NCBI GenBank assembly: GCA_000165345.1
Contig: CM000430.1
Coordinates: 1 to 64,000 of the forward strand
Direction of reading: 5' to 3'
Length of the DNA: 64,000 nucleotides
Both the position numbers and the translations under genes were made by a program. Below the pieces are notes generated by a model, which made no database searches, was not told the DNA's origin, and saw nothing but the letters and a program-made list of their open reading frames with translations. Below, piece by piece: positions 1,734-63,125 of the stretch; positions within the stretch are counted from its first letter, which is position 1; each line of letters starts with the position of its first letter.

Positions 1734-1746
1734 TTTTGGCGCCAAT
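1734..1746. promoter_or_regulatory. E2F-like motif TTTTGGCGCCAAT in the divergent promoter of the first ORF and hsp70
   Basis: Read directly. A second site, TTTAGGCGCCAAATC, lies at 2755-2769. Confidence 0.5.
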
Positions 1747-2450
1747 CTTGGATATACTTGAGTAATTTTATTTGCTGGTTAATTTACACTAATTACAGTT
1801 TTTGCTATAAAAACTTACGATTTTTGTTAGTTTGAGTATATTTTTCTTCTTTTTTCATTTAAATTTATGTTTGTAAATTGTCTTAATAGTGAATTCTCAT
1901 TCTATGGTGAAAGGTATATATTATAAAATTTGTAATATTATAATAAAATATTTTTTTCCTATGAAATTTAATTTTACAAGCATTAGTTTCATAATATAAT
2001 CATATTGTTGATTAGTCTGTAAAAATATTATTTGATTGATGAGAGATCCATATTCACTTTATTTTATTAGAATTTTTATTAAATAAAAGTTGTATTATTT
2101 TTTTTTTATTGTAATTATTAAAAATAATGGCCTTTTTTTTTAATTAATAGAAATATTATGTAGTGAATTACAATCACAACTTGATTTTACCATTTTATTA
2201 TATTTTTTTTAAAAATTATTGTAATTATTTAATACTTTACACACGTAATTTATTTTCTTCTATTGAATTAATTAAACTTTATTCCTATAACATTCATATA
2301 CAGTTGCATTGCAAATTTTGCATGCAATGCATGCAATCAATGTGGACAAAATTTTAATAACGAAGCATGAACAACAACATGGCGGTTAGCTGCTAAAGTC
2401 AAATATTTACATTAATTATTATTATAAGAAAACGAGGAGTTGATTTATTC

Positions 2451-2596
2451 GGAAAGTAAAGTGATAAAAGTAAATGGAAAAAAGGGAGAAAATGAGGAAT
2501 AAGAGGGGGAAGAAATGAAAGAAAGAAAAATATAAGAGAAAGAATGGGAAGAGTAGTAGTAGGAAGAAGGAAACAATGTAGTGGGAAATATAACGC
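2451..2596 (+). repeat. About 145-bp polypurine (GA-rich) tract in the hsp70 upstream region
   Basis: ggaaagtaaagtgataaaagtaaatggaaaaaagggagaaaatgaggaataagagggggaagaaatgaaagaaagaaaaatataagagaaagaatgggaagagtagtagtaggaagaaggaaac is mostly A/G on the hsp70 sense strand. Confidence 0.8.
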
Positions 2597-3162
2597 AATA
2601 AAAAAAAATGGACGCTACATGAGGGAAGTTTGAAATAGTTGATAATTAAAAATTTTAATTTAAGTACAATTTTTAATTCGATTTCAATCTACAAATACTA
2701 ATTAGAGAAAATTATATGCAATATTTTTTTTCCATGTTATAGAAAATTGAAGGGTTTAGGCGCCAAATCGAGAGTTACTACTTTGTATAAAATAATTTAT
2801 ATATTAATTGCGCATTAAATAAAAATTAGGGGGTTTGGCGGTAATTCTGAGACGCAATAATATTTAAAATAATAATAAATAATCAAAATATATAAGAAAA
2901 TGTAAATATAATAAATGATGAAGAATAATGGTCAGTTGTTAAGTACGTATAAAATGGCAAATACTAATCAAAATGTAAAAAATAAATAGTATAATGTCAA
3001 ATTATGAATAAGAAATAATAGACACAGCTATTTATGAGGGGAAAAGTCAATGTGTCTCGTAAAGATTGAAAAATAAGTACAAGTTACCCCATCTCACTAG
3101 ATAAATAGTTTATTTCATTTTAACTGATTTAATAAATTCTTATCGAAATTCAAAAAAACAAG

Positions 3163-7765: not shown

Positions 7766-7843
7766 TGGGTGTAATATAGTGGGGCTATGAAAAAAAAATA
7801 TTGGGATATTTATAAATATAAATTTAAAAAAAAAACTATGGTT

Positions 7844-9346
7844 TTATCTAATTACAAAATTTTTTAAATCGTGATTAGTTTTGCAATCAGAATTTGTCTC
7901 TTCAATCCAAGAGAACGTATTACATTTTTGTTGGTCAGATTTTGGACAACTCCAATATAGTCTTCCTTTATTTACACCTGACTTTGTTACCTTCTTTTTT
8001 ACACAGGGGATTCCATGTTTACATTGGGGATGATTTAAAGAGATTTTATTATTTATCTTAAAATCATGGCTTTTAATAGTTTTATTAATTTGACCTTTTA
8101 CTTCAACTTTACTTAAAGTCAGAAACTGACTAATTGTACTTTGTCTTTGCTTACATTGAGGCAAGTACTTAGAACAAATGCTAGGGGGCTTCCTTTTTTC
8201 ATTATTATACAAAGATTCAAATTCTCCCGTCTTTAAAATTAGTAAAATAGGACAGTGATCAGAACCATATATGTGATCAAGTATCTCACACTTTATAGAT
8301 TCTGATATTAATCCTTTTGAAATAAGAAATAAATCTATTCTAGTTCCTTGATTTCTAATTCTAGACTGATTCATTTGGCTCCAACATGTGTATTTGTTAT
8401 TAGTTCTTGGATAATAATGTCTATATGCATCAACCAAACAATATCCTTTAATCATCTCAATATTCATCCTTCTCATATGCATATATGCTTTAGCAAAGGA
8501 GGAAGTTTCAAAGATTTCCTTAGGGCTTGTTAGCATACATGGCGCCAATTTGCAATTGTCGAGTATCCCACAATCATCATAACAATCAATTTTTTCCAAT
8601 ATAATGTTAAAGTCTCCCGCCAAAATGACATTTCTTTTGCATGCATTTTTAAGTACATGTAATAATAAATTAAGATATTCTTGGAATGCAAGTCTATATT
8701 TAAATCTCTCAGGATCAACAGTTTCTGATAGTTCAATTCGTGTTTCATTTTGATTTTGAATTTCTTTTAACATAACTTCTTCTTTTTCCTTTTCTTCCTT
8801 TTCTTCAGCTTTGCTTCTTAGTAAAGGAACATATAAATTTAGCAATACGAATTGTTTATGATCAGTAATTACACATCTACCTTCTCCATCTATTTCAGAT
8901 ATAGATATCCCATATTTATCTTTAATTTTAGAAATATCGGATTCAATTTCTTGCAATTTTTCTGTTTGAATCATTTGGTTTATGTCAAATTGACATGGAT
9001 TTGATTCTAGCCAAGAAAACCCCTTTGCCGCCTCAATTACCATAGTTTTTTTTGAACAATAAGTAGCAACTCCGCTATATCTTTTATTATTTTCAGCAAG
9101 TGAAAAATATGATTCATAATTTCCAGGACATCCTATTGAGTTGTTTAAATCATCTCCAAAGCTCATTTTACATTCTTGAAGGCATATTATGTCTGGGCTC
9201 TTCACATTTAGATTAGCACTGGTAACTTCATCGTTTACGCATATGTTATCAAGTAATTTAGAAAAATTTGATTCTGTGTAACCTCTTCTTTTTGTGAATG
9301 ATATTAAACCATTTACATTGAAAGAAATTATTGACAATTCCCTCAT
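7844..9346 (-). CDS. APE2: AP endonuclease 2-like (ExoIII/EEP family) with C-terminal GRF-type zinc finger
   Basis: 500-aa ORF. ISFNVNGL, DIICLQE, GDFNI, RIDLFLIS, GSDHCPI EEP-family motifs. Acidic EEKEEKEKEE insert. C-terminal CKHGIPC...GRLYWSCP...CNTFSW matches the zf-GRF pattern typical of APEX2. Confidence 0.8.
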   Translation of the reverse strand: MRELSIISFNVNGLISFTKRRGYTESNFSKLLDNICVNDEVTSANLNVKSPDIICLQECKMSFGDDLNNSIGCPGNYESYFSLAENNKRYSGVATYCSKKTMVIEAAKGFSWLESNPCQFDINQMIQTEKLQEIESDISKIKDKYGISISEIDGEGRCVITDHKQFVLLNLYVPLLRSKAEEKEEKEKEEVMLKEIQNQNETRIELSETVDPERFKYRLAFQEYLNLLLHVLKNACKRNVILAGDFNIILEKIDCYDDCGILDNCKLAPCMLTSPKEIFETSSFAKAYMHMRRMNIEMIKGYCLVDAYRHYYPRTNNKYTCWSQMNQSRIRNQGTRIDLFLISKGLISESIKCEILDHIYGSDHCPILLILKTGEFESLYNNEKRKPPSICSKYLPQCKQRQSTISQFLTLSKVEVKGQINKTIKSHDFKINNKISLNHPQCKHGIPCVKKKVTKSGVNKGRLYWSCPKSDQQKCNTFSWIEETNSDCKTNHDLKNFVIR

Positions 9347-9620: not shown

Positions 9621-10255
9621 ATTGATTTAATATTTATTATTAAAATTTGGCGCCCCACACGTGTTTAAATTAGAAATTAGAATTGGCGGCAAGCTTTAGC
9701 ACTTGACAACTTGAAATGCATGCAAAAAAAAAGAGAGCAATTTGGATAAAGAAAAGTTTAGGAACGAGGAGTAAAGGACAAGCAACAAGCAATAGGAAAA
9801 TAAAATATAGTTATTATATTGTAACAAAATGGAAAGAATCTAAAAGACTTATAAAAAGTCATCTTGAGTTAAACGTTGAAATACAATGATCAGAGATCTC
9901 GGTGGAAAAATATTTCATCCCGACTATTTGCTTTTTTAGAGCGTATATCCGGTCTTATGTAGCAAATACATATACATCATCACTTCAAAGTACTTCAAAG
10001 CATTACTCTAGATTGACGATCTTTAACACTATTAATCAGGAAAAGATTAAATATTGTCATTTAATATAAGGTCAGATTTTGTTTCTATACATAATCTTCC
10101 AGTGTTAATTAGGAAAGAAATAGATTAATTTGCGAATATTAAATCAAAATATATAACAAATATATTCATTTTTATCAGCTTTTATATATTAACAATTGAA
10201 ACATTTCCTTTATATTAAAGAAAAGGTATATATAAGTAGTCACAAAGCTCTGAAA

Positions 10256-12208: not shown

Positions 12209-12266
12209 TGGCGCCAAAACGGTAAATTACCGGTCAGAAATTCGATACCGGGGAGTTTTGGCGCCA
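12209..12266. promoter_or_regulatory. Inverted pair of E2F-like motifs (GGCGCCAAAAC ...34 bp... GTTTTGGCGCC) upstream of NOP56
   Basis: Arms at 12210-12220 and 12255-12265 are perfect reverse complements. Spacer contains ACCGGT and a repeated TACCGG. Confidence 0.55.
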
Positions 12267-12521: not shown

Positions 12522-15500
12522 TTATTCATAGCTTGTTAAAATCTGAGCAAGTTCGTTTTGCGTGGGGATACTTTTAGGGTGGATTGACTTGACAATGTTT
12601 TGCTGAGCTAGAATCCATATATTGTCACAATCTTTAATAGACTCTGCATGATGAGCAACGATAAAAATGTTACAATGCTTAAAGTGAGTAGCTAGAATTC
12701 TACTTATGCTTTGTTGTAGTCCCTGATCTCCATTTGTGTTCGGAGGAGGCTCATCAATTAGAACCATTCTATATTGTCTTGAGTGTATTACCAGCTTAGC
12801 TATAGAAAGGTACCTGAGTTGTGATCCTGATAAAGATCCTGCATTAGAATAAAGATTATTTTTCACTTCATTAATAAAAATAGGGTCAAGTAAACATTTA
12901 TCCAATCCTAGCAAAATTTCACCATCAGTAAGTTCCTCGTACGGGTCCAGGAAGTCTCTGATAGTCCAACCTTTTAGAAGTAAAGGTATTTGGGGAAGAA
13001 CTCCAATAATCCTCCTTCTTTCTTTGATAGAGAGCATGGAAATTGGTGTTTCGTCCAGAAGAATTTGGCCTTTGGTATACTTAACCAGACCAAGGAGGGC
13101 CAGGATTAAGGTAGATTTTCCAGATCCTGTTCTTCCTACAATACCAATCTTCTCGAAAGGTTGAACGTTAATATTTATACCATCCAAAACTACACTATAA
13201 GATGTACCCATAATATCACTATATCCAACTTCTAGATCCATAATCTTGACTCCTGTACGCTTTGAATCGGACTTAAAGATCCCACTCAAAAGCTTATGAC
13301 TCATATTTTCATTTTCCAAAACGATTTTCTTCTTGCCAAAGCTATTAAATCTATAATCTATGACAAAGAATAGATCATCATTAATTTCCTCAATCTCTAC
13401 TGAATCAAATCTCCTATAAGTATAATTACTATTACCAGTGGTAACCTGATTTAGATTTGGATTTGGATTTGGATTCGGATTCTGAATTAGTGTATTATTA
13501 GTATAAAAAGTTCGATTGTTAAAATCATCTTCTCTATTGTTATTAGTGGATGATTTGGTAGAGTTTTCAATGGTGGTTTTTGAGCTTCCATTGAAGCTGT
13601 TATTATCACTATTGACTTCGGTACCTGGTTTTGATCCATTTGATATTAAAGAAAAAATCCTTTCACTACTACACATATCTCTTTCCATGGACGCAAATCT
13701 GTATGTAATTACGCCCGTAGTATCTGATATCAATAAAGAGTAAAGTAAAGCAAGATACCTCCAATTGCTTTCAACTGGTATAAATAGAATAAAAATGATC
13801 AAAGGAAGAGTATATAACTGAAGCCTAATAGCTGCCCATTGACTTGCAATATGTTGAAGTAGCTTTATTCGTTGAAGATGTTCAATCTGAAGTAAGAACT
13901 GGTTAAGGAGATGTCTCTGAGCATTAAAGGCATGAATAACCACAATGCCATTAATTAGCTGAGAAAAGAGGCCATACATTGGAGAAAGAACGGAAAGAGC
14001 AACTTTCTGTGCCCTAATATAAGTAGAAATATAACGTTGACAAACAATTTTATACGTCATAAAGGTAACCATTAATATTATTGGTAATGAATACGGTACT
14101 GCATAGCTTAATATTGAGATTTGGATCAAGAAATCGATTGATGGAACAATTACTGAGGCAATTTTCTTCAAAGGACTCTCGTCCATGACCAACATATCTG
14201 TGCTGAGTCTGTTCATTAGATATGAAGTTGGGGTTGAATCAGAAAGCCAAAATGGAGAAAAGAGAATCTGACGAATTAAGTTGTTATGGGCAATATTGGA
14301 AGCCTTCACACCTCCAATAGCTTCTCCAATAAAAAGTAGAGCGCAAAGAAGTCCTTGGAAAAGTACAATAAATGTGTAAATCCAAATAAAATTTGGATTA
14401 TTACTGGAATCATTATAACTGATAAATGTGTCAGAGTAACGGTCAAACACTGATTTTAATATACAAGAAATGAGTAACACTATGCACCATGCTCTTCCAA
14501 CTAGAGAAAAATACCACCAATAAATTTCAAGAGTATTTCTTTTCCCTGGGCTTATCTCAGTTTCCAAGACCAAGTCTGCTGGCAGGCTTACAGGTTTATA
14601 AAATGTTTTAGAAGAAGTTAGTGTTAATGAAACCTTGTTATTCAAAGTTGATGGACTGGTACATGTTCCAGATGACGTAGGTGTTGTTCCGGTAATTGAA
14701 TGAAAGCTTTCTATACTTATATTTTTACTCTGAAGAGCTGATATCTGGTGGCTAATGCGGTGTATTACATCTAGCTCCTCATTAATATCATTTGAATTGT
14801 CTGTTAACCTTGATTCTAATTTATTGTGAAACTCTAAATTCATTTTATTTAAATTGTTTGGCGCCAAATCCGAGTTGCATGTGGATTCATGCAAATTTTC
14901 TTGCATGCAATCTATGCCCTGTGCGCATACCGGCGAAATATTTTGCTTTTCCACATCATTGTTGCATACAAAGTTGTTAACTTCTAATGAATTGTTGATG
15001 TTTGGTCTAGAATTATTATTAATAAGTGTTTGGTATTCTATTAGAGAGCCTGAAAAGAATATATCATGATTGTTAAGGTGCACAATTTGGATGTTAGTTA
15101 AGCTATTCTCTGGTTGATTGTTGATGAAATATAAGAGAGTAGTAAGGTCAATTGAGAGAATGGTTCTAGAGTATGGGCTATTAAGGAAACCCTTATGTCC
15201 AAAGAGCCTGGAAAATATTTTGGAGCCTACATTTGGGTCAAGGTTGAGAAAAATGTCATCAAATAGGAAAATGGCAGCTTCACTCTGATGGTAGAGGCAT
15301 CTCGCTAGGGCTACTCTTGTTTTTTGTCCTCCACTAAGGGATGTGCCTCCTTCATCAATGACCCTGAGATCACCATCCTTCCAAGATTGAAAATCATGTT
15401 GCAATTGACAAATGCCTGTAACCAGCATGTAGAGTTCTTCATTCCAAGGTTTTCCAAATAATATTGCAGATCTGACAGTGCCTTGAGGAATCCAAGATGT

Positions 15501-17960: not shown

Positions 17961-18648
17961 AATATGTATTTATTATATGCGTAAATAAATTATATATTAA
18001 TAATTATATTTATCAATTATAATTACATATAATATTTATATATATACTACCGCCATCACAATTTTACCGCCAAAACTCAATAGGTTACTCATGGAAATTG
18101 GCGCCGCATGTAATTTTAATTGCACATGTCAAATAGTGGCATTAAAAAAAAAAATGGGTAATAAAATAAGAAGAATAAAGAATATAAATGGTTTTTCTTT
18201 GTTAAATTAGTCAAAAGACTTAATTGATTTTTTTAACTTGCAAACTTTTGGCCAAACAAGATAATAAATGCGTTATGATCATTAAAATTTACAATTCGTG
18301 GTTAAATACATGAAAGAATTAAAGCTGGCTAAATAAAATAAAAAAATCAAAATAACAATAATAGCTCAAAAAATTATTAAATTAAATCTCATGATTGGTA
18401 ATTCACCTTTTTTAATAATGAAAATGATAAGCAATATAATTTTCAATTTTAAAACTATATCCACTCCATTCCACTCCACAATGAAAAATAAAAATAAATT
18501 ATGAACAATATAACTAACTCTACAAATTAATGTAATAATTAAGAATATTAAGTAGCCACTTTTAATCGATTATTTGTTAAACCAACTGTTAATGAATCAA
18601 ATGGCACTATCATCAAATAATATTAATAGCTGTACCTAGCTAAATGTA

Positions 18649-23412: not shown

Positions 23413-23644
23413 TATATTATATTTCTATGAGGAGTTGAGATTTCTGCCTCAATAGAATATTTTGTAATTTTGGATTCCAAATATTATTATTTATAATTTA
23501 TCACTTTTTCTGTCAATCCTTACCTATTCAGAATAATAAATTATTATTATCAGACATTGACACGGGACGCCATCCATTTTAAATAATTCAACGATATATA
23601 TATTATTTGCCTTAAAATAATAATATATATGGCCAAGCCTAATG

Positions 23645-23660
23645 TTGGCGCGCGCGCCAA
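23645..23660. promoter_or_regulatory. Perfect 16-bp GC palindrome TTGGCGCGCGCGCCAA (overlapping E2F-like cores) in ABC2 upstream region
   Basis: Read directly. An isolated GC island in an AT-rich spacer, about 240 bp upstream of the ABC2 ATG. The palindrome TGCATGCATGCA lies nearby at about 24098-24109. Confidence 0.5.
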
Positions 23661-24194
23661 TTAGGGTATCGGAGTTATATATATATATATATAAATAATC
23701 AATTTAATTAACTTTGAAGGAGTGAAGAAGAACTTTTTTTTAAATCTAGTTAAATTGAAGGATTTTGTCATGCAAAAATGGTGAGAAAAAAAAATCATCA
23801 TCTAAAAAAAGAAATTTTGGGTTGTATATATATTTATATAATATTAAGTTCAAGAATAAGATTAAATAATATAATGATTGAAAGAAAAATATGGAAAGTA
23901 ATATGTAGAAAATAAATCAACAAAAAAATGAGCTTTGAAACTAATAATTATTGTTATTATTACTGAATAATAGATATCAGAATTTTTTAAAAAATTAACA
24001 AATGTTTTTAAATGGTTTACAATAATTTAAAAAATTAATAGAATGATTAAATAATTAAAGGGAATAAGAAATTGAAAAAAAATTTGCATGTATTTGCATG
24101 CATGCAAATATAAATGAAATTACGTATTGAAATAATAATTTAAAAAAAAAAAAAAAGTTAAGTTATTGAGAATCATACTAATATTTTATATTGA

Positions 24195-27100
24195 TTATTT
24201 TAAATCACTTAGTTCATTCCAAATATAATTATTAGGCAATTCTCCAAATTGTTTATATATAACTTTATGAAGCTGGTTATTTTTAATAATCCAAAAAATG
24301 TCACAATTATCGAAAATACCAATATCATGAGTAATAATTAAAGAAGGACAATGTTTGAAGGTGGAATTAATGATATTATGAATAGATGGAGTTTCAAATG
24401 TTTTATTATTATATGAAAAAGTAACATTATATGGAGGTTCATCAATAAGTAATAATTGATATTTTAATGGTGATATGATAAATTGAATAAAAGATAGGTA
24501 CCTAATTTGAGAATTTGATAATATTATTGTATTATGTATGGATTGATTTCTTTGGAAATTATGATCAAAATTATATTCATTAGAATCTTGTGAAATTATA
24601 ATAGTTTCTAACTTTAAAGGAAGTAAGAGAATGAAATCCAATAATTTAATCTTATTTAAAGCTTCTAGTATAAGATGATCAGAATATTGAGAAAAAGGGT
24701 CTAATAAAGATCTAATTGTATAACCATCCATAAAAAGATTTTCTTGAGGAAGTAATGCAATAAGTTGATTTTTATTCTTAATATTATTAATTTTAACATT
24801 ATTAAGTAAAATAGTTCCATTTGTTTGTAAATGTAAACCCATAATTGAATTAATAAGAGATGATTTACCTGATCCAGTTCTTCCAATAATACCAATTATA
24901 TTTCCTGGATATGCTTTTAAAATACCATTAATTAATAATAAAGTTTCAAATTTTAAGTTATCAATAGATTCTTTATTAAATTCTCTTGAAATAGAGAAAT
25001 AATTCAAAGTAGAAATTTGTAAATCTTTGATAAATAAACCTTGTTGATTATAAGAATCTTGTAGACTATGATTTTCTGGAAAAATAGGTACAATATTAAC
25101 AAGAGTACTAAAATGATTCATATGTTCGATATCATTTGAATTAAATTGAGGAGGTATTTGTTCTTGATTATTGTTATATTCTTCAATATAAGAATTTTGC
25201 TCATTTTTTTGTATATATTCATTCAATAATGTAAAAGTTTCAATGTAATTTTTAATCCTTTCAACTGAACACATTTCTTTCTCTAATTGTACGAATTTAT
25301 ATATTAAAGAAGAAATAGATTCTGCAATAGAAAGGAAATAATATATACAGATAAATGCTGAACTTGATTGACTTTGAAATCCTAACTGAATTAATATAAT
25401 ATTTAATATAATCCCAACAGGAGTCATTGCAATATTCATCCAAAACCCTGCCCATTGAGTTGAAGCAAGCTGTATATATCTAACCTTAATATATAAATCA
25501 ATATTTTCACTAGCTTGACTTCTAAGCATTTCTTGTTTTCTAAGCATTGCAATTGTTAAACCTCCAAGCTGTGTTCCAGAAAATATTCCACATATTGAGG
25601 AAAAAAGAGATATTGAAAACCTCTGATATTCCCTATAAGATGAAATAAATTTAAGGCATATCGGCTTTATAATAAGCATTATCCATATAAGAAAAAATGG
25701 TGTAAAATAAGGAAATGTATATACAATAAATATTGTCTGACCTATGATTGTCAATACTGGTGCTAAACTGGAAATAATTGACTTCACAATACATGTATCT
25801 ATAATCAACATATCACCCCCAATCCTATTCAATATAATATGTATTGGTATTATATTTGGTATTTTTATTAATAAAGAATCGAATATACTTTTATAAATTT
25901 CATTGGCGCCAAAAGTGCATGCAATAGCCTCTAAAATAAAGACCAGCCCGCCAAAAGTCAAACTGAGACCAGTAGAAAGAGAATATAATAGAAGAAATCT
26001 TTTAAGGGTGTGTGCATGCGTTGAATTTCCAGTAAAAAGCAATTCACTAAGTCTTTCAAGTGCTGATTTGGAAAGTAATATAAACATGATAATAATAATG
26101 ATTGGCCTTCCAACTTTAGAGAGATACCAATTATAGCTATTTAGGGAAATATGTCCTTTATTAACAACTTTTTCTTTAAATGAATTAATAATAGAGGAAT
26201 TATTATTAGAAATAAGTTTGTCAGATTCTGTGTTTTGGCGGGAAATTTCTGGATAATGATTAAAATTCATTGTATAAGAATTATTTTGAACATTATAGAT
26301 TGGATCAGAGTGTGTATGATTAGGGTTTTTTGGGGAGAAGATCATATGATGATGGTCATTATTAACAAGAGTATCAATACGAGTATCTGTAAAAATAGAT
26401 TCAAAATCATTAATGAGAACTTGTTGAGGGATTTTGAAAGAATTTGGTGAATAATTAAAATGATCAATGCATAAATAATGAAAGGAGTTGTATAGATTCA
26501 ATGAGGGTTTAGAATCTAGAGTAGAGGAGTATTTAAGGAAGTTGGAGAGTGATCTTTGGTCAATTGTGATGATTACTGAAGAATTTGAGAGAATTCCATT
26601 GCTATTAAAGAGATTGTAAAAGAGTTTATTAGCAACAAAATGGTCCAAATTGGAGAATATATCATCAAAAATAAACAAAGGACAATATTCTGATTTAGAA
26701 TTGGAGTCCATATTAGAGAAAAAGAAGTAAAGAGTTCTTGCAATACATATTCTGGTTTTTTGTCCTTTACTTAAAATACTCCCTCCTTCGTCAATTTGCT
26801 TTAAATCTCCCTCTTTCCATTGTTGAAAGTCTGTTACTAAGTTGCAGCATTCAATAATTCTCATATAGCGATCTTCTATATACTCTGATCCAAATAATAT
26901 TATTGATCTTACAGTACCAGAAGGTATCCATGGTATTTGTGAAACATATCCTATTGGTAGATTATTTAAAAGATAATAGTTATAGTAAAAATGCCCATAT
27001 TCATGTTCATTCATATTATTCAGAAGAAGATTTTCATTTAATAGTATTTTTTGAATGAATGTAGTTTTTCCAGATCCTGATTCTCCAATCACAAAAACCT

Positions 27101-34059: not shown

Positions 34060-35436
34060 ATCAATATTTCAAAATAAATTAAATTTCAATCAAAACTCCA
34101 ATTCTTTTGTTCTTTATTGAATATTCATTATTCTATTTGATAATTGTGATGTTTATTAATTTGTTGTATTTTGACAAGTATTCAATCTAAAATAACTTCT
34201 AATTAAATAAGATAAAAATCTATGATTAAATTAGCATGTCATTTTAGCTCTAAACAGTGTCTTTGGATAGCTTCTATTGGCTAAGCATATTAAGAGACTA
34301 GTCGATCCTCTTGAGCTTTTTCAACCAAATACTTTAATAACTTTCTTCTACTAGCTAAATAATTTCGAAGCATTGCCCGCCAAAAATATTGACCTAATAC
34401 GCTTTCCACTATCTGGGTATCTACGCGCGCCGTCTACTTTAGACCTATTGTCAGAAATTTACTAGGAATAATATAATGATTAATAGATCAGATACTTAAA
34501 GGAGTAGGAAATTTTTTAAAGAATTTATTTCTATTAATTTATTTGTTATTAAAGGGCAAAAATATGGTGTATAATTTTAATAAAATAATATGTATTTGTA
34601 TAAATACTAAAAAGATTTGTTAAAATAATAGAATAAATATTAAACGAATTATTAATATGATTACTTTATAATTTTGAAATTTGATATCAGTTCATGTATA
34701 ATTGAACTTTTAATGTTTATTATATGAAAGAAACATTGATGTTATTTTGCTGTATCTATTAAGTACTTTTTATTTTCTTCTTTTTAGATGGGGTATAAAA
34801 TTTAATCAAGAATATTTTTCTAATAAGAGCAAAAAAAAGTCTGAATACTTATGATTAGTAAACTCTATATTTCTAATCTCTCACATTTCAACCCAATTTT
34901 TTACCCAATATAGCTAACTAAATATTCATCTACAGCTCTAGAAATAAATTAAAATAAACCTATTCAAATTGATTAAATTAAACTCTTTCCACATAAATCT
35001 TCTTTCATAGTTGTGCATATTTAATTATTCATTTTTTTTAGCAATATTTGTTACCGCTAACACATGTAATAACTTTTGTTGGCGCCTATATTTCAGAATT
35101 TATGCATGTGGACGAGTCAGATTACATTGAAGAACAAAATAAAATAGATTGGGAAAGGAAAAGAGAGAGAAACGAGAAAATAACGAATGTTTCCATTCCT
35201 TTAATTAGTCATTTAACTCGTCTAGATTATTCACTTTTCAGTTTTTTTTTCTTTTATGAAATTAATATTTATACTAGTATTTCTTAGTGATAGTAGTAAA
35301 AGGCATTAGAATGTTGATTTGGAAGAAAATAAAAAAATATAAATTAAAATAAAAATGATGGTTGGGATGAGTCTGGTGTTAAAGAAAGAAAGTATAAAGT
35401 ATATTAGGAAGGAAATTTGTAATAGATAAAAATCAA

Positions 35437-36389: not shown

Positions 36390-37367
36390 TTAAGTGCATA
36401 TAATACAATATATATTATTTGCTCTTTATAAAAAAAAACTTATTAATTTATGTTTTAATACTTGTTCACAATAAAAACATGTCTTAATAGCTAGAATTTA
36501 TCAGATTTTTGTGTTTTTATCTAACTATCCCAAAAGTTATTCCATACCATTTCACGAATATTTAGACAAACTCTTATATTTAAAAAAAAATCTACAATAT
36601 TCACCTCCCCATCATAATATGCTCGAAATTTTGTCTAGCCTCGGATCCGAGAATAGACGATTACAATCTAATTAAATTAGAGACAAGTTATTTTGTGGGG
36701 GTGGCGGGTTTTCCTTTTTTTAATAAATTTGCAATTTGTCAAATAAGCCATGTAATAGTTTACAAGTATTGGAATATTTGCAACTTTTTTTGTAATTTTA
36801 AGAAATTAATTTTATCTTGTTTCTAATTAAATTCATACTTTTATATTTAACAATGTTTAAGATTTTTTTCCCCTATTTCCCCCTCAATACCTTCATTCAT
36901 TTATACCTCTCCCTCTCCTATTTTACGAGTGTCTTAGCTAGACAATAATTTGATTTGATTACAATCAAATATTCGGGTATAAAACTTAAATATATAAAAT
37001 TAGTAACTAAATGAATATAGAATAATTTGAGAATATATACTAATGTAAGAAAGGTAAATAACAATCTTAATTTTTATTTTTATATTAATATTATATTTGG
37101 TGTGTGAAAATATGGGAATTGGCGGTAAAACTTGTAAATATTTTAATTATAAGTGGCTATTGTTAATATTTATAGTGTAATGATTATAAATTCTGGTACT
37201 CATAGAAAATAATGGATAGTAATACAAGATAATTTAGTAGTTGTAGTGGGAATAATTGTACTTATAATAATTGCAATTGTAACAATTCTAGTGCAAAAGA
37301 CATGTGTTCTATATTTGTAAATTATTAATAAAGTAACCAAATTATTAATTAAATCTAAAATTATCCA

Positions 37368-38930: not shown

Positions 38931-39539
38931 CTGACTAATTTGAATCCATCTATATTAATTAATTAGTATAATAGTTAATTCACTTATAATTAATATATCA
39001 ACAAATTCTAACTTACCTCTTAGTCCATGTAGGAATATCAATCATTGATTCAAAAAGCTACTTCCTAACTTATAGTTTCATTCAATCACTCAAATAATTT
39101 CTGTATAATAATAATAATATTTAATATTTTAATATATTTATATTTTAACCTATTAACTTGTTATTGAAATTTTTAATCTGGTTATTATATTGTATCTATT
39201 TTTTCTTAGATTATTTTAAATCTATTTAATATATTTATACCAATTAATTGATTCTATTCCTGGTCTAATACTTCTTCAAATCCATAAAATAATAAGTCCT
39301 CTTTTTTATTTTTTTTAGCTTCGTTGTTAATTGACTTGCAACATTTACCGCCATAACTGTCAAAATTATCCCTTTATGCAATTTTACCTTTATTTTTGAC
39401 ATGATTTATTTTGGCGCCACACTGCTTCACAAATATTTGTTGCAGTAAAGAAGGAGGAAAAAGTTAGAGGTAATGAAAAAGTTTAAATAATACTCAATAA
39501 ATATGAACAACTAAATATTTTTTAAATATACAGTAAACT

Positions 39540-40037: not shown

Positions 40038-40382
40038 ATGGCCAAATCAAAGAACCATACTAATCATAATCAGGTAAGTAATAATTTATTGGATTAGAGA
40101 TAACGTGCTTTTCTTTGTATATCATTAAATTTTGTAACATTGAAAAGAAGTTATCCTTGATCTGATTATATATAATTGGATAATTTACTTTTCTCTTTTG
40201 TTATTTAATAATAGAACCGTAAAGCTCACAGAAACGGAATAAAGAAGGCAAAGAGCTACAGAAAGTTACCAACATTCGGTATGAATGCTAAATTCTTAAA
40301 GAACCAGAGATTCTGCAAAAAGGTTGCTATGAAAGAAGCAGCAGCAAAAGCAGCAGCAGCCAAGAAAGCTCTCTTTAACTAA
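40038..40382 (+). CDS. RPL29: 60S ribosomal protein L29e; two exons 40038..40073 and 40215..40382, intron 40074..40214
   Basis: Exon 1 encodes MAKSKNHTNHNQ and ends at GTAAGT. The intron ends ...aatag. Exon 2 encodes NRKAHRNGIKKAKSYRKLPTFGMNAKFLKNQRFCKKVAMKEAAAKAAAAKKALFN then stop. Conserved L29e N-terminus. Missed by the ORF track because of the intron. Confidence 0.8.
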
Positions 40383-41581: not shown

Positions 41582-41610
41582 GGCGCCACATCCCGCAATT
41601 TAGGCGGGAT
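41582..41610. promoter_or_regulatory. E2F-like GGCGCC plus inverted repeat ATCCCGC-N7-GCGGGAT in the divergent RPLP2 / SERP1-like promoter
   Basis: gggcgccac atcccgc aatttag gcgggat. The arms are reverse complements and resemble canonical TTTCCCGC E2F half-sites. Confidence 0.5.
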
Positions 41611-41959: not shown

Positions 41960-42280
41960 ATGGTAAGTTTTTTTTTTCAATAATCTATTATGCACTTTTA
42001 TATTATAAGAAATATTCAAGTGCATACTAAGTATTAACATTTCTAATTATTAAGAAAGACTAACTATAAATTACATGCTATTTAGGCACAATCTAGATTT
42101 ACAAAACTCAAGGGTGAATTATATGAAAAAAACATTGATAAGAGAGGAAGTGTTTCATCTTCTAAGAAGAAGAGTGGATATCCCGTTGGTCCATTTGCTC
42201 TAGGACTCTTTATTTTTGTAGTTATAGGTTCAGCAATCATCCAAATGATAGTTAGTGCTACTACCAAACATTTGGATTAA
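41960..42280 (+). CDS. Stress-associated ER protein SERP1/RAMP4 homologue; exon 1 is the ATG only (41960..41962), intron 41963..42085, exon 2 42086..42280
   Basis: ATG is immediately followed by GTAAGT. The acceptor is ...ctatttag. The spliced product is MAQSRFTKLKGELYEKNIDKRGSVSSSKKKSGYPVGPFALGLFIFVVIGSAIIQMIVSATTKHLD. GPFALGLFIFVVIGSAIIQMI parallels the RAMP4 TM segment [21 protein letters not shown]. The antisense ORF 42082..42267 is spurious. Confidence 0.7.
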
Positions 42281-43457: not shown

Positions 43458-44264
43458 TTTAATTAATTCACTCTTCTATTCAGAAGAATAGCAAATAATA
43501 ATGCACAAATTACTGCTGTCTAGTAATTGGGTACAACCCTAATACCTTCAATAAGTATTTCTTAGTGGGGTGGTATACCAAAATGAGTGTATTTATTAAG
43601 TTTTATTTATAGATATTGATTAAAAAGACTTCACTGTACCACACTCTCAGTCTATGATGGGCTCTTAATTCTAGAATAAATTTGCCCTTCTAGAGCTGGC
43701 CTGGCTTATTTTTGTCATTTTTTTTTTATTAAAAAAGCATTTATTTTTTTTTGACTTTAGTACTAACTTTTTGCCTCCCCTTTTTTTACCAAAACTAAAT
43801 TGCTTATTATTCCCGCCCAAACTAGTAGTGTAATTATTGACTAAATAAATTGCATGCACAAAAACAATAAATTATTATAATAAACTACATGACTAACAAA
43901 TAATAAGAAAATATTTTGCTTTTGAATAAATTAATCTAATTAAGAATATTAATTCAATATTTTAAAATATAGAGCTTTATATAAACTATTTAAAAATTAA
44001 AAAAAAAATGTTTCATTTTGCATTAAAATAGAAAGTCAAGAATTAAGAGAAAAAGCAATACTATTTGGCAATTTTAATTAAAGTCGAATATTATAAATCA
44101 TTATATAAAATAAGAAATATGTGGAAAGGGCGGGCAAAACATGTAAATTATATTTAGGAAATATAAAGAAAAGAAAGCAAAAGAATAATAATATAAATAA
44201 TAAAAGTCAAATCATAATAAACTTATATATAAATAAAAAATAATAATAAACAAAATCTATCTAA

Positions 44265-45344: not shown

Positions 45345-46026
45345 TTTGTATTAATAGCGAAATCCAATAATATCGTAAACTCTATTACTAGTATACTAGC
45401 CAGAATAATTTATTTCCTTTCTTATTCTCGATTTGAATAATTTTATTAAGTCAAGGATGAATATAGGTTTAATTCAAATAGGTATTTATTGGTATTTTTC
45501 TATACCATAATACCAGAGTATTATTTTAAGAAAAACTCTCTAAATTTATTCAGTAATAATTTTATTCAATATAAATCTTGAATTTATTTACTAAATAAAG
45601 ATTTTTTACTTGTATTAATCAATTAAACTCGTCATTATTGTGTTAGTTGTCAGTAAATTACATTTCTCTATTTAATTAAGCAGTTGCCGCCTAAATTGGG
45701 CGGGCACATGCGATAACGAGACGAAATTAATAAAAGGCAAATTAATATTAATTATGACCATAATAAATAAATATTAATAATAATATGAGACATATTATAT
45801 GTATGTTAAATGTTAAAATATATAAATAAAGGCACAATATTATTAATGTATTTAAGAGACGTGTAGGGTGGTTTTGAAATACAAATGAAAATATATCAAT
45901 ATTATTAATATATATATAAATAAGCTTTCCTAGTTAAACTAATTAAGCGGAATTATTTTCTTGAACAAAAAAAAATTCTTCCAGGACAAATTCGGTGTTG
46001 TTTTTAAAAATTCAAAAAATATAACA

Positions 46027-47396: not shown

Positions 47397-47685
47397 TCCT
47401 TATATAATTGCAATCAAATAATCTATATTTTCTTTTTATTCTATATTGGTCCTATCCACCACTTTCTTTTTTAATAATATAATATTACTTATTACCTTAA
47501 GTTCTCTACCTATCTTCTATAAAGTAGAATTAACTCTAGCATCTGACTATTCTTTATAATCAGCATCAATCACAATTCCCCTTTCATCAACAATCATTCA
47601 CTTTCATTGCTAATATTTCTAAACTATTATCACACATTAGCTCCATTTCTGTATGAAATAATCAAATAATTTTAGGCGGCACTAT

Positions 47686-47696
47686 TTTGGCGCCCA
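47686..47696. promoter_or_regulatory. E2F-like TTTTGGCGCCC with adjacent GGCGGC in the divergent promoter
   Basis: tttaggcggcactattttggcgcccaattt. Confidence 0.5.
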
Positions 47697-49699: not shown

Positions 49700-50308
49700 C
49701 TTTAACTGTAATATCAAATAATATTGAAGATTGATACCTTAAATAAAAAATATTGAATTTTATTTATTACTATTCTCTCTAGTAACAAAAATGAAAATTT
49801 TGATTTTCCTCTACTCTTTATCTCTACCTAACCTTTATTTATTTATCAGAGAGATGACGAATAGAGACCTATCCATTTTCATTTTACATACAAATTTAAT
49901 GTCAAATACTAAATGTCCTATACCGGCAGTAGACATGACGGAGACGCGCTTTTTTGAGAAAGGGGTTGTGAAAATAATTTTTAGATTTGAAATTCAAAAA
50001 TAAGAATGAAGAAAATTAAAGAGAATGTATTTGTTTAACATTTCTTTTAACACAAACTTTGTGAGAGAAGGAATTAATTTGTAGCTTTATTTAGTGTTTA
50101 TGTATTTGACTAACAATGATTGAAATATTGAAATAGATATCAGTAATTTCCTAGGTATTAAATAATTTAGAAAGAGAAAATTTGAAAGAATTAGCTATTT
50201 AATCAATAAAATTCTACATGAGCCTCAAATAATCGCTATATTAACGTCAGAATGATCATTTTATGTTGGGCAAATGTTAAAATTGGTTTTTAAATACTTC
50301 ATTACATA

Positions 50309-51656: not shown

Positions 51657-51670
51657 AATTGGCGCCAATT
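51657..51670. promoter_or_regulatory. Perfect 14-bp palindrome AATTGGCGCCAATT (E2F-like core) upstream of the GPD gene
   Basis: Read directly. About 90 bp upstream of the GPD ATG on the minus strand. Confidence 0.5.
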
Positions 51671-54087: not shown

Positions 54088-54108
54088 GGCGCCAAAAGTT
54101 TGGGCGCC
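54088..54108. promoter_or_regulatory. Near-palindromic double E2F-like site GGCGCCAAAAGTTTGGGCGCC upstream of the inositol phosphatase gene
   Basis: Two GGCGCC cores in inverted orientation sharing an A/T centre, about 165 bp upstream of the ATG at 54272. Confidence 0.5.
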
Positions 54109-59062: not shown

Positions 59063-60001
59063 AACAGTACTTTTCTCCCCTTCCCACCTCCACTTAACAA
59101 GGGTTTAAGTTTTATTCTTTTTTTTTTTTAATTCCTTACAGGTAGAAATTCTAAATTGGTAATATTTAATTTATATTATAGAATGGTTTTATTTTTCTTT
59201 TAACTTTTTCTTAAGTGATAACTTGAATCTTTAATCGTTTAATGACATTATCTATGTTCATCTATTTATATATGCAAACATGAATTAAAGAATAATCAAT
59301 TTTGGTAGATAATATATACTCAAAGATATTTTTATTTTAATATTATCAATAGTAAATCTGGTTTAGAATATTTGCAACACAAGAATGTATTTTTAGTACA
59401 AAATTAGAGGTTGATAACTATAAACGATAAAGTAGTATAAAAACATATTTCTTAAACTACTAAAATTCAAATAATTCTATCACAAAACTACTAAATTAAT
59501 AAAAATTTTCAATTTTTCAAAAATGAATATTTTACACTTTCACACAATTTCTTCAAAAAATAAATTAGCATGCAAATAAAGGCGCCAAGTTAAGGCGGGC
59601 AGATAGTAAACAAAAGGTGGTAATTTATTTGAAAAATGTATGCAAAATATATAGAAAAATGACATTAAGGCGAAAATAAGTATTTTGTAAAAAATTAGAA
59701 TTTAAGATAAATTGGGTTAGCAATATAAAAAATAGATAATTAAAAAGTGATATATTATTATATTTATAGAAAGTAGAAATTTTGTGTTGAAAATAATTAT
59801 TTTAAGGAAATATACATAGAAATTAGTGAGTAATATCAACATTTAGTGTGCATAATATTATGTGATTTAGAAGATTGGAAGAGAAATATAGAAAAATAAG
59901 TTGAAAGAAAATTAAAAGTTTTCTAATGGGAAAATTGTATAATTAGAAAATTAATTGGATAAATTTATATTACAAAGTAAAAAAAGTGAAATAAATATCT
60001 A

Positions 60002-60868: not shown

Positions 60869-60987
60869 ATGGATTAACTTCAAGTACTAGTTAATAATAA
60901 GATTTAATATTTTCTTGATAGACTGTTTTTAAATCGAACAGAATTCTAAATTTTATTGAAATATTGAGGGAATGTTCCCAACAATAT

Positions 60988-61380
60988 TTAATGAATCTTT
61001 CCAATCTTTGCCAAGTGAGTGACAGTAGGAGGTAAAGAAAGATCAACGGATAAGACCTTCTTTAAAATTAAATCTGCAACTGCTCCCCCATTGTTTTTAA
61101 AATCATTCTTGACTATCTCAATTGCCTCCTCTGTGGATTTTTCTAAAGTTTGATCTACAGAATCTTCAACAGAAAAGTTTTTAAACTCTGACTCAAATTG
61201 TGCCTCTTCCTTCTCTCTAAATGCCTTTAACTCTTCTTCAGCAGAAATTTGAGCCTCCTTGAGCTTTAAAATTCTGTTTTCCTTTGCGCGACGAACAATT
61301 TCCTCGGCATCCACCTCAGCATCCATTAACTTTTGAATTAAGGCTGATGAGCCTGTACCATTCTTTCCTGTTGCTGACAT
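60988..61380 (-). CDS. VMA10: V-type H+-ATPase subunit G
   Basis: 130 aa. IQKLMDAEVDAEEIVRRAKENRILKLKEAQISAEEELKAFREKEEAQFESEF parallels Vma10 (GIATLLQAEKEAHEIV..ARKYRQDKLKQAK..A..EI..YK...E.EF). Confidence 0.75.
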   Translation of the reverse strand: MSATGKNGTGSSALIQKLMDAEVDAEEIVRRAKENRILKLKEAQISAEEELKAFREKEEAQFESEFKNFSVEDSVDQTLEKSTEEAIEIVKNDFKNNGGAVADLILKKVLSVDLSLPPTVTHLAKIGKIH

Positions 61381-62038
61381 GTCTCTCTGTCAAATGAAAA
61401 TCTCTATTGAAACTTCCTAAATATTTATCTTGTATATTATATTCGACCACAGTTTATTCAAACTGAATTCCTATTAATTACTACTTTTAACTTTTCAATT
61501 TTCAAGCCTTATTAGCGGCTTTAATCTTATTCTCAATATATTTATACCTTCCCGCCTTAGGCGGTAATCTTTGAATCCTTTCTTAACAATGATTGCACTA
61601 AATTGCATGTTAGAGTGAACATTTTAACAACTCCAAACTTAATTTTCCTTCCTTATACTAATTGCTTTGCCTTAATTTTTATAGATGTTGATTGTAATTA
61701 TACTTCCAGTAATTCTTTATATTTTGTAAATCTTATTCAATATTGTGATAATTAAAATAAACTTGAGGCGCCAACATTTTGAAAATTTATTTTGATTTTA
61801 ACGATACCTATTTGCAAATAAATGTGTAAATATCTAAAAATAATATGATTTGAGAGATAAATTTGACTACGATCATTTTGAATTTATTTTGACCATATTC
61901 TATTTTGTAGATGGATATGATTAGTTGTTTACATTTATATCTCAAATAATTATTGGGAATATAAGTTTTAATTCTAGAAACCAATCTAAAAATTAAATTC
62001 ATAAGAAAAGAAATTAAAAATTTGGTATATTCTCAAGA

Positions 62039-62695
62039 ATGAAGGAGTCAGAGAAAGAAAAAACTGTATCTAGTAATAGAGAGTTCTTAGAAATTAATGA
62101 AGAAAATAATTCAAATAGATTAGAAGATTTAGTTTTAGTTGTTGATCACAATAAAACTAATAAAAACAATATTATTAACTTCAAGGAAAAAGATGATGAT
62201 AGTCAAAATAAATTACCTCCATGGAAAAGAAAACCAATTTCTCTTGATAATGATATTTTGAAGAGAGCAAAAAATTTCCTTTCTTTGTGTGAAACTATTG
62301 GAAATGAGAAGGTAACTCAAAGCTACAATGAAGATAAACATGTAGTAATGAATGTACATATGGGAGTGTTTGACATTAATGGGAAGCTCCCAGAAGATAG
62401 TTCCCTTTCAAATAATGAAATTGTGGATGTATCAAATTTAGATTTTAAAACTTCTCAGGATAATGAACTTTGCCAAATTGAACGAGATGAAGATGACAGT
62501 GACGATAACGATGAAAGCGATAACTATGAGGACGATATTACTGGATCCTCATTTAGATATGATCCAGATTCTAAAAGTTCATTGGAAGAGCAAATGGCCA
62601 TCCACAAAATGTTAACTCAAAGCAAATCGGGAAATGGAAGTTCTAAAAAGAATAAAAATTTTGTGCAAGTTATATCATCAAAGGATAACGAATAA
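62039..62695 (+). CDS. Hypothetical acidic protein
   Basis: 218-aa ORF with a D/E-rich segment (DEDDSDDNDESDNYEDD). No domain recognised. Confidence 0.5.
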   Translation: MKESEKEKTVSSNREFLEINEENNSNRLEDLVLVVDHNKTNKNNIINFKEKDDDSQNKLPPWKRKPISLDNDILKRAKNFLSLCETIGNEKVTQSYNEDKHVVMNVHMGVFDINGKLPEDSSLSNNEIVDVSNLDFKTSQDNELCQIERDEDDSDDNDESDNYEDDITGSSFRYDPDSKSSLEEQMAIHKMLTQSKSGNGSSKKNKNFVQVISSKDNE

Positions 62696-63125
62696 TACAA
62701 GCATGTGCTACCTATTTCAGTAGTATAGAAATAAGATTTTCCCGGATCATAAATATAAAAATTCAAGCTTGATGCATTATTGAAATCTTCAAAAGCAAAT
62801 AAAATGTGTTACATCTCATACATTCTTATATATTACTACAGTAAATTTCAATTTACTATAACTACGATTACAAATAATATAGTTTTTTTTAATCTTTTAC
62901 TTTTTTCCTTCAACCTTTCTTTTTCATTTTATTTTCACAATTAAGACAATAATGTTGGGCGGCAAACTATTTTAATAAGTACCGGTATTTAGAAGAATAT
63001 TAGAAGTCGAGAATAAAAAGTACATAACATTCCTTGTTGAATATTCTAATCCTAATAAAGAAGTGATCTTTGAGTTTTTAACAAAGGAGTGGAAAAAGAA
63101 TTACTGAGATCATTGGAAGCATAAA

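Follow-up and report, generated by a model that had tools for sequence, protein, structure and literature searches.

The closest described counterpart of the element analyzed here is the 'E2F' upstream motif of Cryptosporidium parvum, 5'-TGGCGCCA-3' or [C/G]GCGC[G/C] (PMC3734150; also Table 3 of a 2025 review). No other upstream motif is as over-represented in this organism, and it is found upstream of 161 of 200 co-expression clusters (PMC3734150 among the sources). As cited in later papers, Bankier 2003 described a C. parvum E2F upstream motif; the word E2F is absent from the text of Mullapudi 2007. In sporozoites, E2F1 and E2F6 motifs dominate the ATAC-seq peaks, and more than half of the C. 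parvum ATAC-seq regulatory peaks are annotated as bidirectional promoters (Xiao et al. 2025 preprint); lncRNAs have been reported to carry E2F/DP1 motifs at most 100 bp upstream. [quoted passage not shown] A literature search for ChIP, DAP or EMSA of Cryptosporidium E2F/DP found no study and, according to the 2025 review, functional validation of these proteins is still lacking.

The E2F/DP sites of metazoa and plants (TTTSSCGC; TTTGGCGCCAAA for homodimers; TTGGCGGGAA for E2F/DP; E2F4-DP2 and E2F8 crystal structures) also consist of a 6-bp GC core with T/A tracts, and share with the C. parvum sites the symmetry of the core and the existence of both GGCGCC and GGCGGG forms. The E2F family binds DNA as dimers, and paired or overlapping inverted sites are classical, e.g. 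in the adenovirus E2 and DHFR promoters. In human SELEX, E2F homodimers select GGCGCC and E2F/DP selects TTGGCGGGAA (PMC4686757). One difference is that of scope: animal and plant E2F sites mark a pRB-controlled cell-cycle and DNA-replication regulon, whereas the C. parvum sites appear to mark almost every promoter.

The window, that is, the entire stretch of 64,000 nucleotides that was analyzed, belongs to C. parvum chromosome 2 around HSP70 (cgd2_20) and shows 31 differences from C. parvum IOWA-ATCC among the 17,765 bases compared. GGCGCC occurs 22 times in the window, compared with 0.39 on average and at most 3 in 100 dinucleotide-preserving shuffles, and is the commonest all-G/C hexamer. 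Under a gene map that combines ORFs, Pfam and orthologous gene calls, non-coding DNA (20.3-21.1 kb) holds 18 copies and coding DNA (42.9-43.7 kb) holds 4 (binomial p = 2e-6 to 3e-6), with Markov-1 expectations of 0.14 and 0.21, respectively. The first-pass annotation had counted by hand about 18 intergenic and 4 coding copies, with less than one expected by chance, and had named equal genome-wide densities in coding and intergenic sequence as an outcome that would speak against it; the counts are reproduced, non-coding DNA in the window is far richer, and the listed positions are correct apart from small slips (8541 not 8545, 25905 not 25915, 9649 not 9648). The G/C palindromes GGGCCC, CCGCGG, CGGCCG, GCCGGC and CCCGGG are all absent, and the GC-core forms in the window comprise, in addition to the 22 GGCGCC, 14 GGCGGG/CCCGCC and 4 GCGCGC; the symmetric form thus dominates, whereas human E2F/DP prefers GGCGGG (PMC4686757). 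Scans of the window for tRNA and Rfam families detected no RNA genes, and a search with the DBP6 helicase for paralogous C. parvum loci in which the statistics could be replicated returned orthologues only.

The core is embedded in a short context. TT precedes or AA follows it at 20 of the 22 copies, yielding TTTGGCGCCAAA-type sites (background 0.29, p = 2e-9), an excess that persists against the local background and bears out the earlier remark that an A/T run adjoins almost every copy. The fraction of A is 0.70, 0.68 and 0.59 at positions +1 to +3 and falls to the background level further out, and the information content drops off more than 3 nt on either side of the core. The palindromes and pairs quoted in the first-pass annotation are all present where it placed them, and the proposed tendency of the sites to form palindromes or inverted pairs stands with respect to close pairing: 8 adjacent pairs of GC-core elements have a gap of 15 bp or less, with 0.83 expected (P < 2e-4). 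Palindromy beyond the core is not enriched, because 4 sites possess both flanks (TTGGCGCCAA), compared with ∼6.5 expected for independent flanks, and was rejected as a feature; the term 'inverted' is meaningless for GGCGCC because the core is its own reverse complement. Of the statistics suggested for the pairs, those on spacing show enrichment in the window. An apparent orientation bias of the one-sided sites did not hold up. By hand, the A-run points towards the nearest gene in 12 of 14 of them (p ∼0.013), a result that was rejected as post hoc; automated definitions give only 16-19 vs 8-12 (p = 0.08-0.28), and no orientation bias was found in other clades.

The distribution of the sites relative to genes is also non-uniform. 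Exact GGCGCC is present in 14 of the 19 promoter-containing intergenic regions, and four more contain variants (GGCGGG, GGCGCGCGCGCC), so that 18 of the 19 carry some form of the element, in agreement with the initial claim that it marks nearly every intergenic region; the region lacking any GC-core element is 49700-50308, upstream of a nucleoplasmin-like gene. The distances, measured from the ATGs, are about 100-1000 bp upstream with a median of ∼350 bp (164-1022 bp in single-promoter regions). Three of the seven divergent regions (RPLP|RAMP4, Brix|RPS24 and BCAS2|Got1) contain a single GC-core cluster, and it is plausible that one site or cluster is shared by two divergent genes.

GC-core elements in the window, with their gene context and state in related Cryptosporidium genomes
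Element	Position	Strand	Context and conservation
TTTTGGCGCCAAT	1738..1743		Divergent region, ORF 43-1380(-) / HSP70(+); distance to the ATG of the ORF 358 bp; no change in chipmunk genotype I and C. ubiquitum
TTAGGCGCCAAA	2759..2764		399 bp upstream of HSP70 (cgd2_20) ATG; aligned C. ubiquitum sequence TTTCC-CGCCAAAA
TTAGGCGCCAAAAA	6056..6061		193 bp upstream of Aminotran_5 gene; conserved in CGCCAAA half only
Intragenic site, APE/GRF-nuclease CDS	8541..8546		TTG GCG CCA, rare GCG codon; CDS offset shared with chipmunk genotype I (L007:13201)
ATTTGGCGCC	9649..9654		303 bp upstream of APE nuclease ATG; found in chipmunk genotype I and C. ubiquitum
GGCGGCAA	9685		30 bp from ATTTGGCGCC site (9649)
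Pair GGCGCCAAAAC ... GTTTTGGCGCC	12210..12265		Starts separated by 50 bp; 455-505 bp upstream of NOP56; both invariant, 50-bp spacing kept in L007 (9494/9544) and L008 (9480/9530), three species
Intragenic TTTGGCGCCAAA, ABC-1 CDS	14860..14865		TTG GCG CCA; same offset in chipmunk genotype I (L007:6915)
Cluster CCGCC, TTACCGCCAAA, ATTGGCGCCGCATG	18050..18105		∼900-950 bp upstream of ABC-1 ATG; site at 18100 reads GGCGCC in chipmunk genotype I and GGCGCT in C. ubiquitum
Variant palindrome TTGGCGCGCGCGCCAA	23645..23660		233 bp upstream of ABC-2 ATG
Intragenic ATTGGCGCCAAAAG then TGCATGCA, ABC-3 CDS	25905..25910		Rare codons GGC GCC
AAAAGGCGCCAAA	28967..28972		342 bp upstream of ABC-3 ATG; kept in C. 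ubiquitum
Intragenic ATTGGCGCCAGA then TGCATGCATGCA, ABC-4 CDS	32647..32652		GGC GCC; same rare codons in C. ubiquitum (L011:16491)
Variant pair CCCGCCAAAAA + CGCGCGCC	34376..34433		317-370 bp upstream of ABC-4 ATG; both kept in C. ubiquitum
GTTGGCGCC	35081..35086		Between ABC-4 and 240-aa ORF; kept in C. ubiquitum
Variant GGCGGG	36703..36708	+	Upstream of 240-aa ORF; kept in C. ubiquitum
TTACCGCC + TTTTGGCGCCA	39348..39418		DBP6(-)|RPL29(+) divergent region; ∼370 bp from DBP6 ATG
GGGCGGGAAA	39766..39771	+	272 bp upstream of RPL29; kept in C. ubiquitum
Cluster GGCGCC-ACATCCCGC-N7-GCGGGAT	41582..41610		RPLP(-)|RAMP4(+) divergent region; GGCGGGAT half alone conserved in C. meleagridis and C. ubiquitum, ATCCCGC arm at 41590 not conserved
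Variants TTCCCGCCC (43810) + GGGCGGGC (44129)	43810..44134		Upstream of 324-aa ORF
Pair TTGCCGCC-N6-GGGCGGGC	45684..45705		Centre of Brix(-)|RPS24(+) divergent region; kept in C. meleagridis and C. ubiquitum, first member becoming TTACCGCC and TAGCGCC
Pair TTAGGCGGC-N9-TTTTGGCGCC	47675..47694		BCAS2(-)|Got1(+) divergent region; in C. ubiquitum GGCGCC first, GCCGCC second
AATTGGCGCCAATT	51661..51666		102 bp upstream of G3PDH ATG; invariant in 3 species
TTACCGCC-N16-TGGCGCCAAAA	52082..52108		260 bp upstream of YEATS gene; GGCGCC block invariant in 3 species, upstream element TTACCGCC in two and TTACCGCT in C. ubiquitum
GGCGCCAAAAGTTTGGGCGCC	54088..54108		164-179 bp upstream of synaptojanin-like gene; first site (54088) invariant, second (54103) not conserved, decaying to GAGCGCC and GACCGCC
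AAAGGCGCCAAG-N-AAGGCGGGC	59581..59599		416 bp upstream of 288-aa ORF; GGCGCC invariant in 3 species
TTCCCGCCTTAGGCGGTAA, near-palindromic half-site pair	61549..61564		171 bp from V-ATPase G ATG
GAGGCGCCAAC	61767..61772		Divergent region, 267 bp upstream of 218-aa ORF

In three-species alignments, 7 of 14 sites are invariant, compared with 9.2% of all hexamers (p = 1e-4). In the middle block, where the intergenic identity between C. parvum and C. ubiquitum is ∼60%, all three exact sites tested (28967, 35081 and 39413) and four variants are conserved. These alignments place the sites under purifying selection, within the C. parvum clade only. Across two syntenic blocks, exact GGCGCC is 7-9 times rarer at the orthologous loci of the C. 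bovis and gastric clades, and the promoters of the C. bovis clade and of the gastric clade (C. muris, C. andersoni and C. serpentis) contain mostly asymmetric GC-core half-sites such as GGCGG, TTAGCGCCAAT and GGCGGTAA.

The coding regions contain 4 GGCGCC copies compared with 0.26 under a codon-aware expectation, and rare codons are used; these intragenic copies probably give rise to internal or antisense transcripts. Two of them are adjoined by TGCATGCA, the ApiAP2_1 motif, which, like GGCGCC, is a short palindrome over-represented in C. parvum non-coding DNA. This motif differs from GGCGCC in its sequence, in its weaker non-coding bias in the window (11 copies, 6 non-coding and 5 coding), and in that binding by AP2 domains has been demonstrated on protein-binding microarrays.

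The sites, with their observed enrichment, flank structure, placement, conservation and clustering, are very probably promoter cis-elements of the E2F class; which protein binds them, and how this would affect chromatin and transcription, is deduced from knowledge of the family and from the literature. Within the window, they combine a G/C core, [C/G]GCGC[C/G] or GGCGGG, with a T-run on the 5' side and/or an A-run on the 3' side, as expected of E2F-type sites. The element would then be a site of ∼12 bp, consisting of one or both runs and the GGCGCC core, for which GGCGGG or GCGCGC can stand as variants. The most likely mechanism is the binding of a winged-helix E2F/DP dimer to the symmetric GC core, with one subunit reading each GGC/GCC half and a minor groove beside the core that is narrowed by the A/T tracts; an occupied site would mark or open the promoter. 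Often two sites form a pair separated by one to two helical turns, and in divergent regions one cluster can stand between both genes. The presence of the motif upstream of almost every gene, regardless of function or time of expression, speaks more for a general promoter element than for a cell-cycle E2F regulon of the classical kind. The scarcity of the exact hexamer at orthologous promoters of the C. bovis and gastric clades counts against the assignment to the E2F class.

A functional promoter element might instead be read by a factor other than E2F/DP, either sequence-specific or a general promoter or chromatin-opening factor, the likeness to E2F being coincidental. Such a factor would be compatible with the near ubiquity of the motif on promoters of unrelated genes, the absence of E2F/DP binding data from the literature, and the absence of most E2F partners, including pRB, from C. 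parvum (PMC3734150), but appears improbable given that E2F-family specificities agree with the 12-bp arrangement of T-run, GC core and A-run as well as with the two variants, GGCGCC and GGCGGGAA, that protein-binding microarrays of C. parvum AP2 domains assigned the motif to none of them, and that the only apicomplexan genus to retain E2F/DP is also the one that bears the motif. The overlap with CCAAT (GGCGCCAAT) at 1738, 8541, 18100, 25905, 32647 and 51661 could hint at a different reader; however, the third base flanking the TT/AA-flanked half-sites belongs to an A/T run 14 times and to CCAAT 7 times, and the CCAAT box was rejected as the constant part of the element, which is GGCGCC.

It is very unlikely that the sites act outside initiation, e.g. 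in 3'-end formation of the upstream gene, as boundaries or insulators, or in the marking of replication origins. In single-promoter regions, the sites are located roughly mid-way between the ATG and the upstream stop codon (relative position ∼0.2-0.75), so that sequence alone cannot place them on the promoter side, which leaves room for such roles. Nevertheless, all 45 non-coding GC-core elements fall outside the six 3'-to-3' regions, a marginal result (P = 0.044; for exact GGCGCC, avoidance of these six regions is not significant, P = 0.29), every site is at least 237 bp away from the upstream stop codon, and the published ATAC-seq peaks bearing the motif sit at transcript 5' ends (Xiao et al. 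2025 preprint). An origin in composition or chance, or from remnants of a dispersed repeat, is barely conceivable: an AT-rich background makes A/T flanks common and explains nothing more, whereas the count of 22 against 0.39, the lack of five other G/C palindromic hexamers, the persistence of the flank excess and the conservation across species are all at odds with it. Mean identity outside the core ±3 nt is 0.34, compared with 0.33 for random non-coding sequence; given this identity and the count, both a mobile-element or repeat remnant and composition were rejected.

The first-pass annotation pointed to an E2F-like motif of C. parvum upstream regions; both organism and motif are correct, and the sites do match the published consensus (PMC3734150). 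Its suggestion of dimeric binding agrees with the behavior of the E2F family. There is no essential difference between them and the published 'E2F' motif (Oberstaller 2013 motifs 3 and 4; Xiao et al. 2025): the organism, the sequences including GGCGGG, the upstream location and the near ubiquity are the same. Because the motif has already been published for C. parvum, the present analysis is a confirmation rather than a discovery, and no new class of elements is introduced; its value lies in a well-controlled local confirmation, to which the window adds the clustering of pairs, a spacing kept between species, an intragenic excess over a codon-aware expectation and footprints across species, and in a lead on differences between clades. 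The most informative features are the pairs that are conserved, the 50-bp spacing that is kept and the intragenic copies in rare codons, and knowledge of the constrained sites helps in promoter design and in the choice of targets for binding experiments. The motif appears to mark most promoters of Cryptosporidium, the one apicomplexan genus with E2F/DP. It can be tentatively entertained, although with considerable doubt, that symmetric GGCGCC, the type bound by human E2F homodimers, has expanded specifically in the clade of C. parvum, C. meleagridis and C. ubiquitum. If true, this expansion could reflect a shift in the dimer composition or specificity of E2F/DP, and E2F in these parasites might serve to open promoters in general instead of regulating the cell cycle.

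GGCGCC ranks first among the all-G/C hexamers of the window (G+C, 28.6%), with 22 occurrences compared with a mean of 0.39 and a maximum of 3 in 100 dinucleotide-preserving shuffles, so that the abundance far over chance claimed in the first-pass annotation is borne out. The next such hexamer is GGCGGG/CCCGCC (14 occurrences); among the other G/C-only palindromic hexamers in the window, five are absent and GCGCGC is found four times. The annotated coordinates are correct except for three small slips (actual positions 8541, 25905 and 9649), and all the quoted strings are present. The sites are concentrated, as had been proposed, in non-coding DNA, with 18 in 20.3-21.1 kb as against 4 in 42.9-43.7 kb of coding DNA (Markov-1 expectations, 0.14 and 0.21, respectively; binomial P about 2-3e-6).

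The flanking A/T run reported at almost every site is confirmed: TT directly 5' or AA directly 3' accompanies 20 of the 22 hexamers (local background, 0.29; P = 2e-9). In the symmetrised profile, the frequency of A over positions +1, +2 and +3 is 0.70, 0.68 and 0.59, with a drop to the background level farther out, and the outer flanks are no more alike between sites (identity 0.34) than random non-coding positions (0.33). Thus, the unit is a ∼12-bp TTT-GGCGCC-AAA element rather than a repeat, and an origin by chance or through repeats is poorly supported and extremely improbable. The A-runs appeared to be directed towards the gene in a hand count (12 vs 2), but this bias did not hold under automated counting (16-19 vs 8-12) or in other clades, where nothing of the kind was seen.

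The arrangement in palindromes or inverted pairs that had been suggested holds in part. Palindromy past the core is not enriched, with 4 sites flanked on both sides compared with about 6.5 expected for independent flanks, but close pairing is. When overlapping GGCGC/GGCGG matches were merged into elements and placed at random with the element number per intergenic region fixed (5000 simulations), 8 pairs of neighbouring elements were separated by ≤15 bp against 0.83 expected, and 14 by ≤60 bp against 3.75, numbers reached in 0 of 5000 simulations. The typical centre-to-centre spacing is 8-21 bp; the NOP56 pair, at 50 bp, is an outlier. A recurrent TTACCGCC/GGCGGTAA motif, with four of its seven copies about 70 bp or less from GGCGCC, may represent a variant of the E2F site or an element of its own; GCGGTA is distributed 8:0 between non-coding and coding DNA in the C. 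bovis-clade loci, and likewise in the gastric loci.

The gene map comprises 26 genes, derived from ORFs, Pfam hits and gene calls at orthologous loci: HSP70 (cgd2_20; the published upstream length of 1755 bp agrees), a cysteine-desulfurase-like gene, APE/GRF nuclease, NOP56, four tandem ABC transporters, DBP6, RPL29, RPLP, RAMP4, Brix, RPS24, BCAS2, Got1, a nucleoplasmin-like gene, G3PDH, a YEATS protein, a synaptojanin-like phosphatase and V-ATPase G, plus several unannotated ORFs; tRNA and Rfam scans of the window found no family. The C. parvum IOWA-ATCC contig CP044421.1 encodes a protein identical to one from the window, and the DNA shows 31 differences in 17,765 aligned bases. The ORF scan misses the small, intron-containing RPL29 and RAMP4 genes and the first exon of DBP6; when these are added, two ‘tandem' regions become divergent and two more motif-free 3'-to-3' regions appear. 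Upstream of HSP70, a separate 445-aa ORF corresponds to IOWA-ATCC calls of 441-aa and 1359-aa genes and to a single gene call of 2067-2278 aa in four other species (loci L001 and L007-L010 compared), which suggests that the gene models differ or that the gene is disrupted in C. parvum.

On this map, 19 intergenic regions necessarily contain one promoter or more, and 18 of these have an exact site (14) or only variants (4). The 45 GC-core elements of non-coding DNA (GGCGC or GGCGG matches) all lie outside the six 3'-to-3' regions (1363 bp), an absence that is marginal for these elements (P = 0.044) and not significant for exact GGCGCC alone (P = 0.29). The distance to the downstream ATG is 164-1022 bp in single-promoter regions and goes down to 102 bp in divergent ones, three of seven of which hold one single cluster.

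Coordinates of GC-core sites and associated features in the window
Feature	Position (strand)	Remark
Variant TTGGCGCGCGCGCCAA	23645	Promoter-containing region without exact GGCGCC
Variant GGCGGG	36703	Promoter-containing region without exact GGCGCC
Variants TTCCCGCCC + GGGCGGGC	43810 + 44129	Promoter-containing region without exact GGCGCC
Variant pair TTGCCGCC-N6-GGGCGGGC	45684	Promoter-containing region without exact GGCGCC
Region upstream of nucleoplasmin-like gene	49700-50308	Sole promoter-containing region with neither site nor variant
Close pairs	45687/45699, 47675/47689, 54088/54103, 59581/59594, 41582/41603, 52082/52103, 61552/61560
Near-palindrome CCTAATGTTGGCGCGCGCGCCAATTAGG	23638-23665	Embeds a GCGCGC-type site
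TTACCGCC/GGCGGTAA	2837, 5366, 18067, 37121, 39348, 52082, 61560
Four paralogous ABC transporter genes	12522-34059 (-)	Own upstream E2F-like site each: 18100, 23645, 28967, 34376/35081
Intragenic GGCGCC	8541, 14860, 25905, 32647	TTG GCG CCA (two), GGC GCC (two)
GAGACG/CGTCTC	e.g. 45,7xx-45,9xx	Brix|RPS24
(TA)n run	about 51,830	G3PDH|YEATS
ORF upstream of HSP70	43-1380 (-)
RPL29	40038-40382 (+)
RAMP4	41960-42280 (+)
DBP6 first exon	about 39045

Synteny of these loci is maintained genus-wide. In alignments of C. parvum with C. ubiquitum and either C. meleagridis or chipmunk genotype I, where 40-63% of the C. parvum intergenic bases are invariant, 7 of 14 GGCGCC sites are fully conserved compared with 9.2% of all hexamers (P = 1e-4), and altered sites retain the CGCC(A) half. 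In the middle block, where C. parvum and C. ubiquitum share ∼60% identity, conservation extends to each of the three exact sites tested (28967, 35081 and 39413) and to four variant sites. Among the pairs, that of NOP56 keeps a start-to-start distance of exactly 50 bp in three species, Brix|RPS24 is kept in three with small changes (TTGCCGCC, TTACCGCC, TAGCGCC), as is TTACCGCC...TGGCGCCAAA upstream of YEATS (TTACCGCT in C. ubiquitum), BCAS2|Got1 shows turnover between its two positions, and the second member of 54088/54103 decays. GAGACG/CGTCTC (seven copies, all non-coding) is 60% invariant in the three-species alignments, among the best-conserved hexamers, and the (TA)n run of C. parvum exceeds those of C. 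meleagridis and C. ubiquitum by ∼18 bp.

At these syntenic loci, the non-coding DNA of the C. bovis and gastric clades has the exact hexamer at a 7-9-fold lower density. The window and C. parvum-clade loci L003, L004, L007, L008 and L011 have 0.86 (C. parvum) and 0.75 (other species) copies per kb, compared with 0.13 in C. bovis/C. xiaoi (L005, L009) and 0.09 in C. muris/C. serpentis at the gastric loci (L006, L010, L012), where C. andersoni has one copy, orthologous to a C. muris site; promoter regions contain it in 14 of 19 cases in C. parvum vs 1 of 17 in gastric species (Fisher P = 4e-5). Asymmetric half-sites (GGCGG, TTAGCGCCAAT, GGCGGTAA) are still present in both groups, in non-coding DNA only and at similar ATG distances. 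This rarity is in tension with the description of TGGCGCCA as dominant in C. andersoni too (Liu et al. 2016), so the ∼43 kb sampled per clade may be unrepresentative.

The identification with the published E2F-like upstream motif is essentially right, and the feature is already known: E2F (5'-TGGCGCCA-3') is the most over-represented C. parvum upstream motif, with a described 12-bp architecture and a first sighting credited to Bankier 2003 (Oberstaller et al. 2013, PMC3734150); it is present upstream of 161 of the 200 co-expression clusters and is assigned to no AP2 domain. In a 2025 preprint, sporozoite ATAC-seq peaks are dominated by E2F1- and E2F6-type motifs, and more than half are annotated as bidirectional promoters. 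A 2025 review, which counts two genes each for E2F and DP, emphasises that functional validation is lacking; no study of Cryptosporidium E2F/DP by ChIP, DAP-seq or EMSA was found in our literature search. In human SELEX (PMC4686757), GGCGCC is assigned to E2F homodimers and TTGGCGGGAA to E2F/DP, in agreement with the two forms in the window.

That the sites are functional cis-elements is nearly certain; E2F/DP as their reader is a less secure proposition. The main rival, another promoter factor or one of a more general kind, is unlikely. A role in 3'-end formation, boundaries or origins is poorly supported and highly improbable, with the six 3'-to-3' regions devoid of elements.

The intragenic copies number 4 compared with a mean of 0.26 and a maximum of 2 in 1000 within-gene synonymous-codon permutations, and use rare codons (GCG, 2.8% of Ala; GGC, 7.7% of Gly; GCC, 6.8% of Ala codons). 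TGCATGCA lies within a few bases 3' of two of the four; 32647 is conserved with identical codons in C. ubiquitum, and 8541 and 14860 are conserved in chipmunk genotype I. Because E2F/DP1 and ApiAP2_1 are the top motifs ≤100 bp upstream of 396 lncRNAs (Li et al. 2021), these copies are plausibly internal or antisense promoters.

Overall, the best-supported reading, and quite probably the correct one, is that E2F-family dimers bind GGCGCC-type sites and mark promoters, frequently with paired sites; where divergent regions are compact, a single cluster may lie between two genes.
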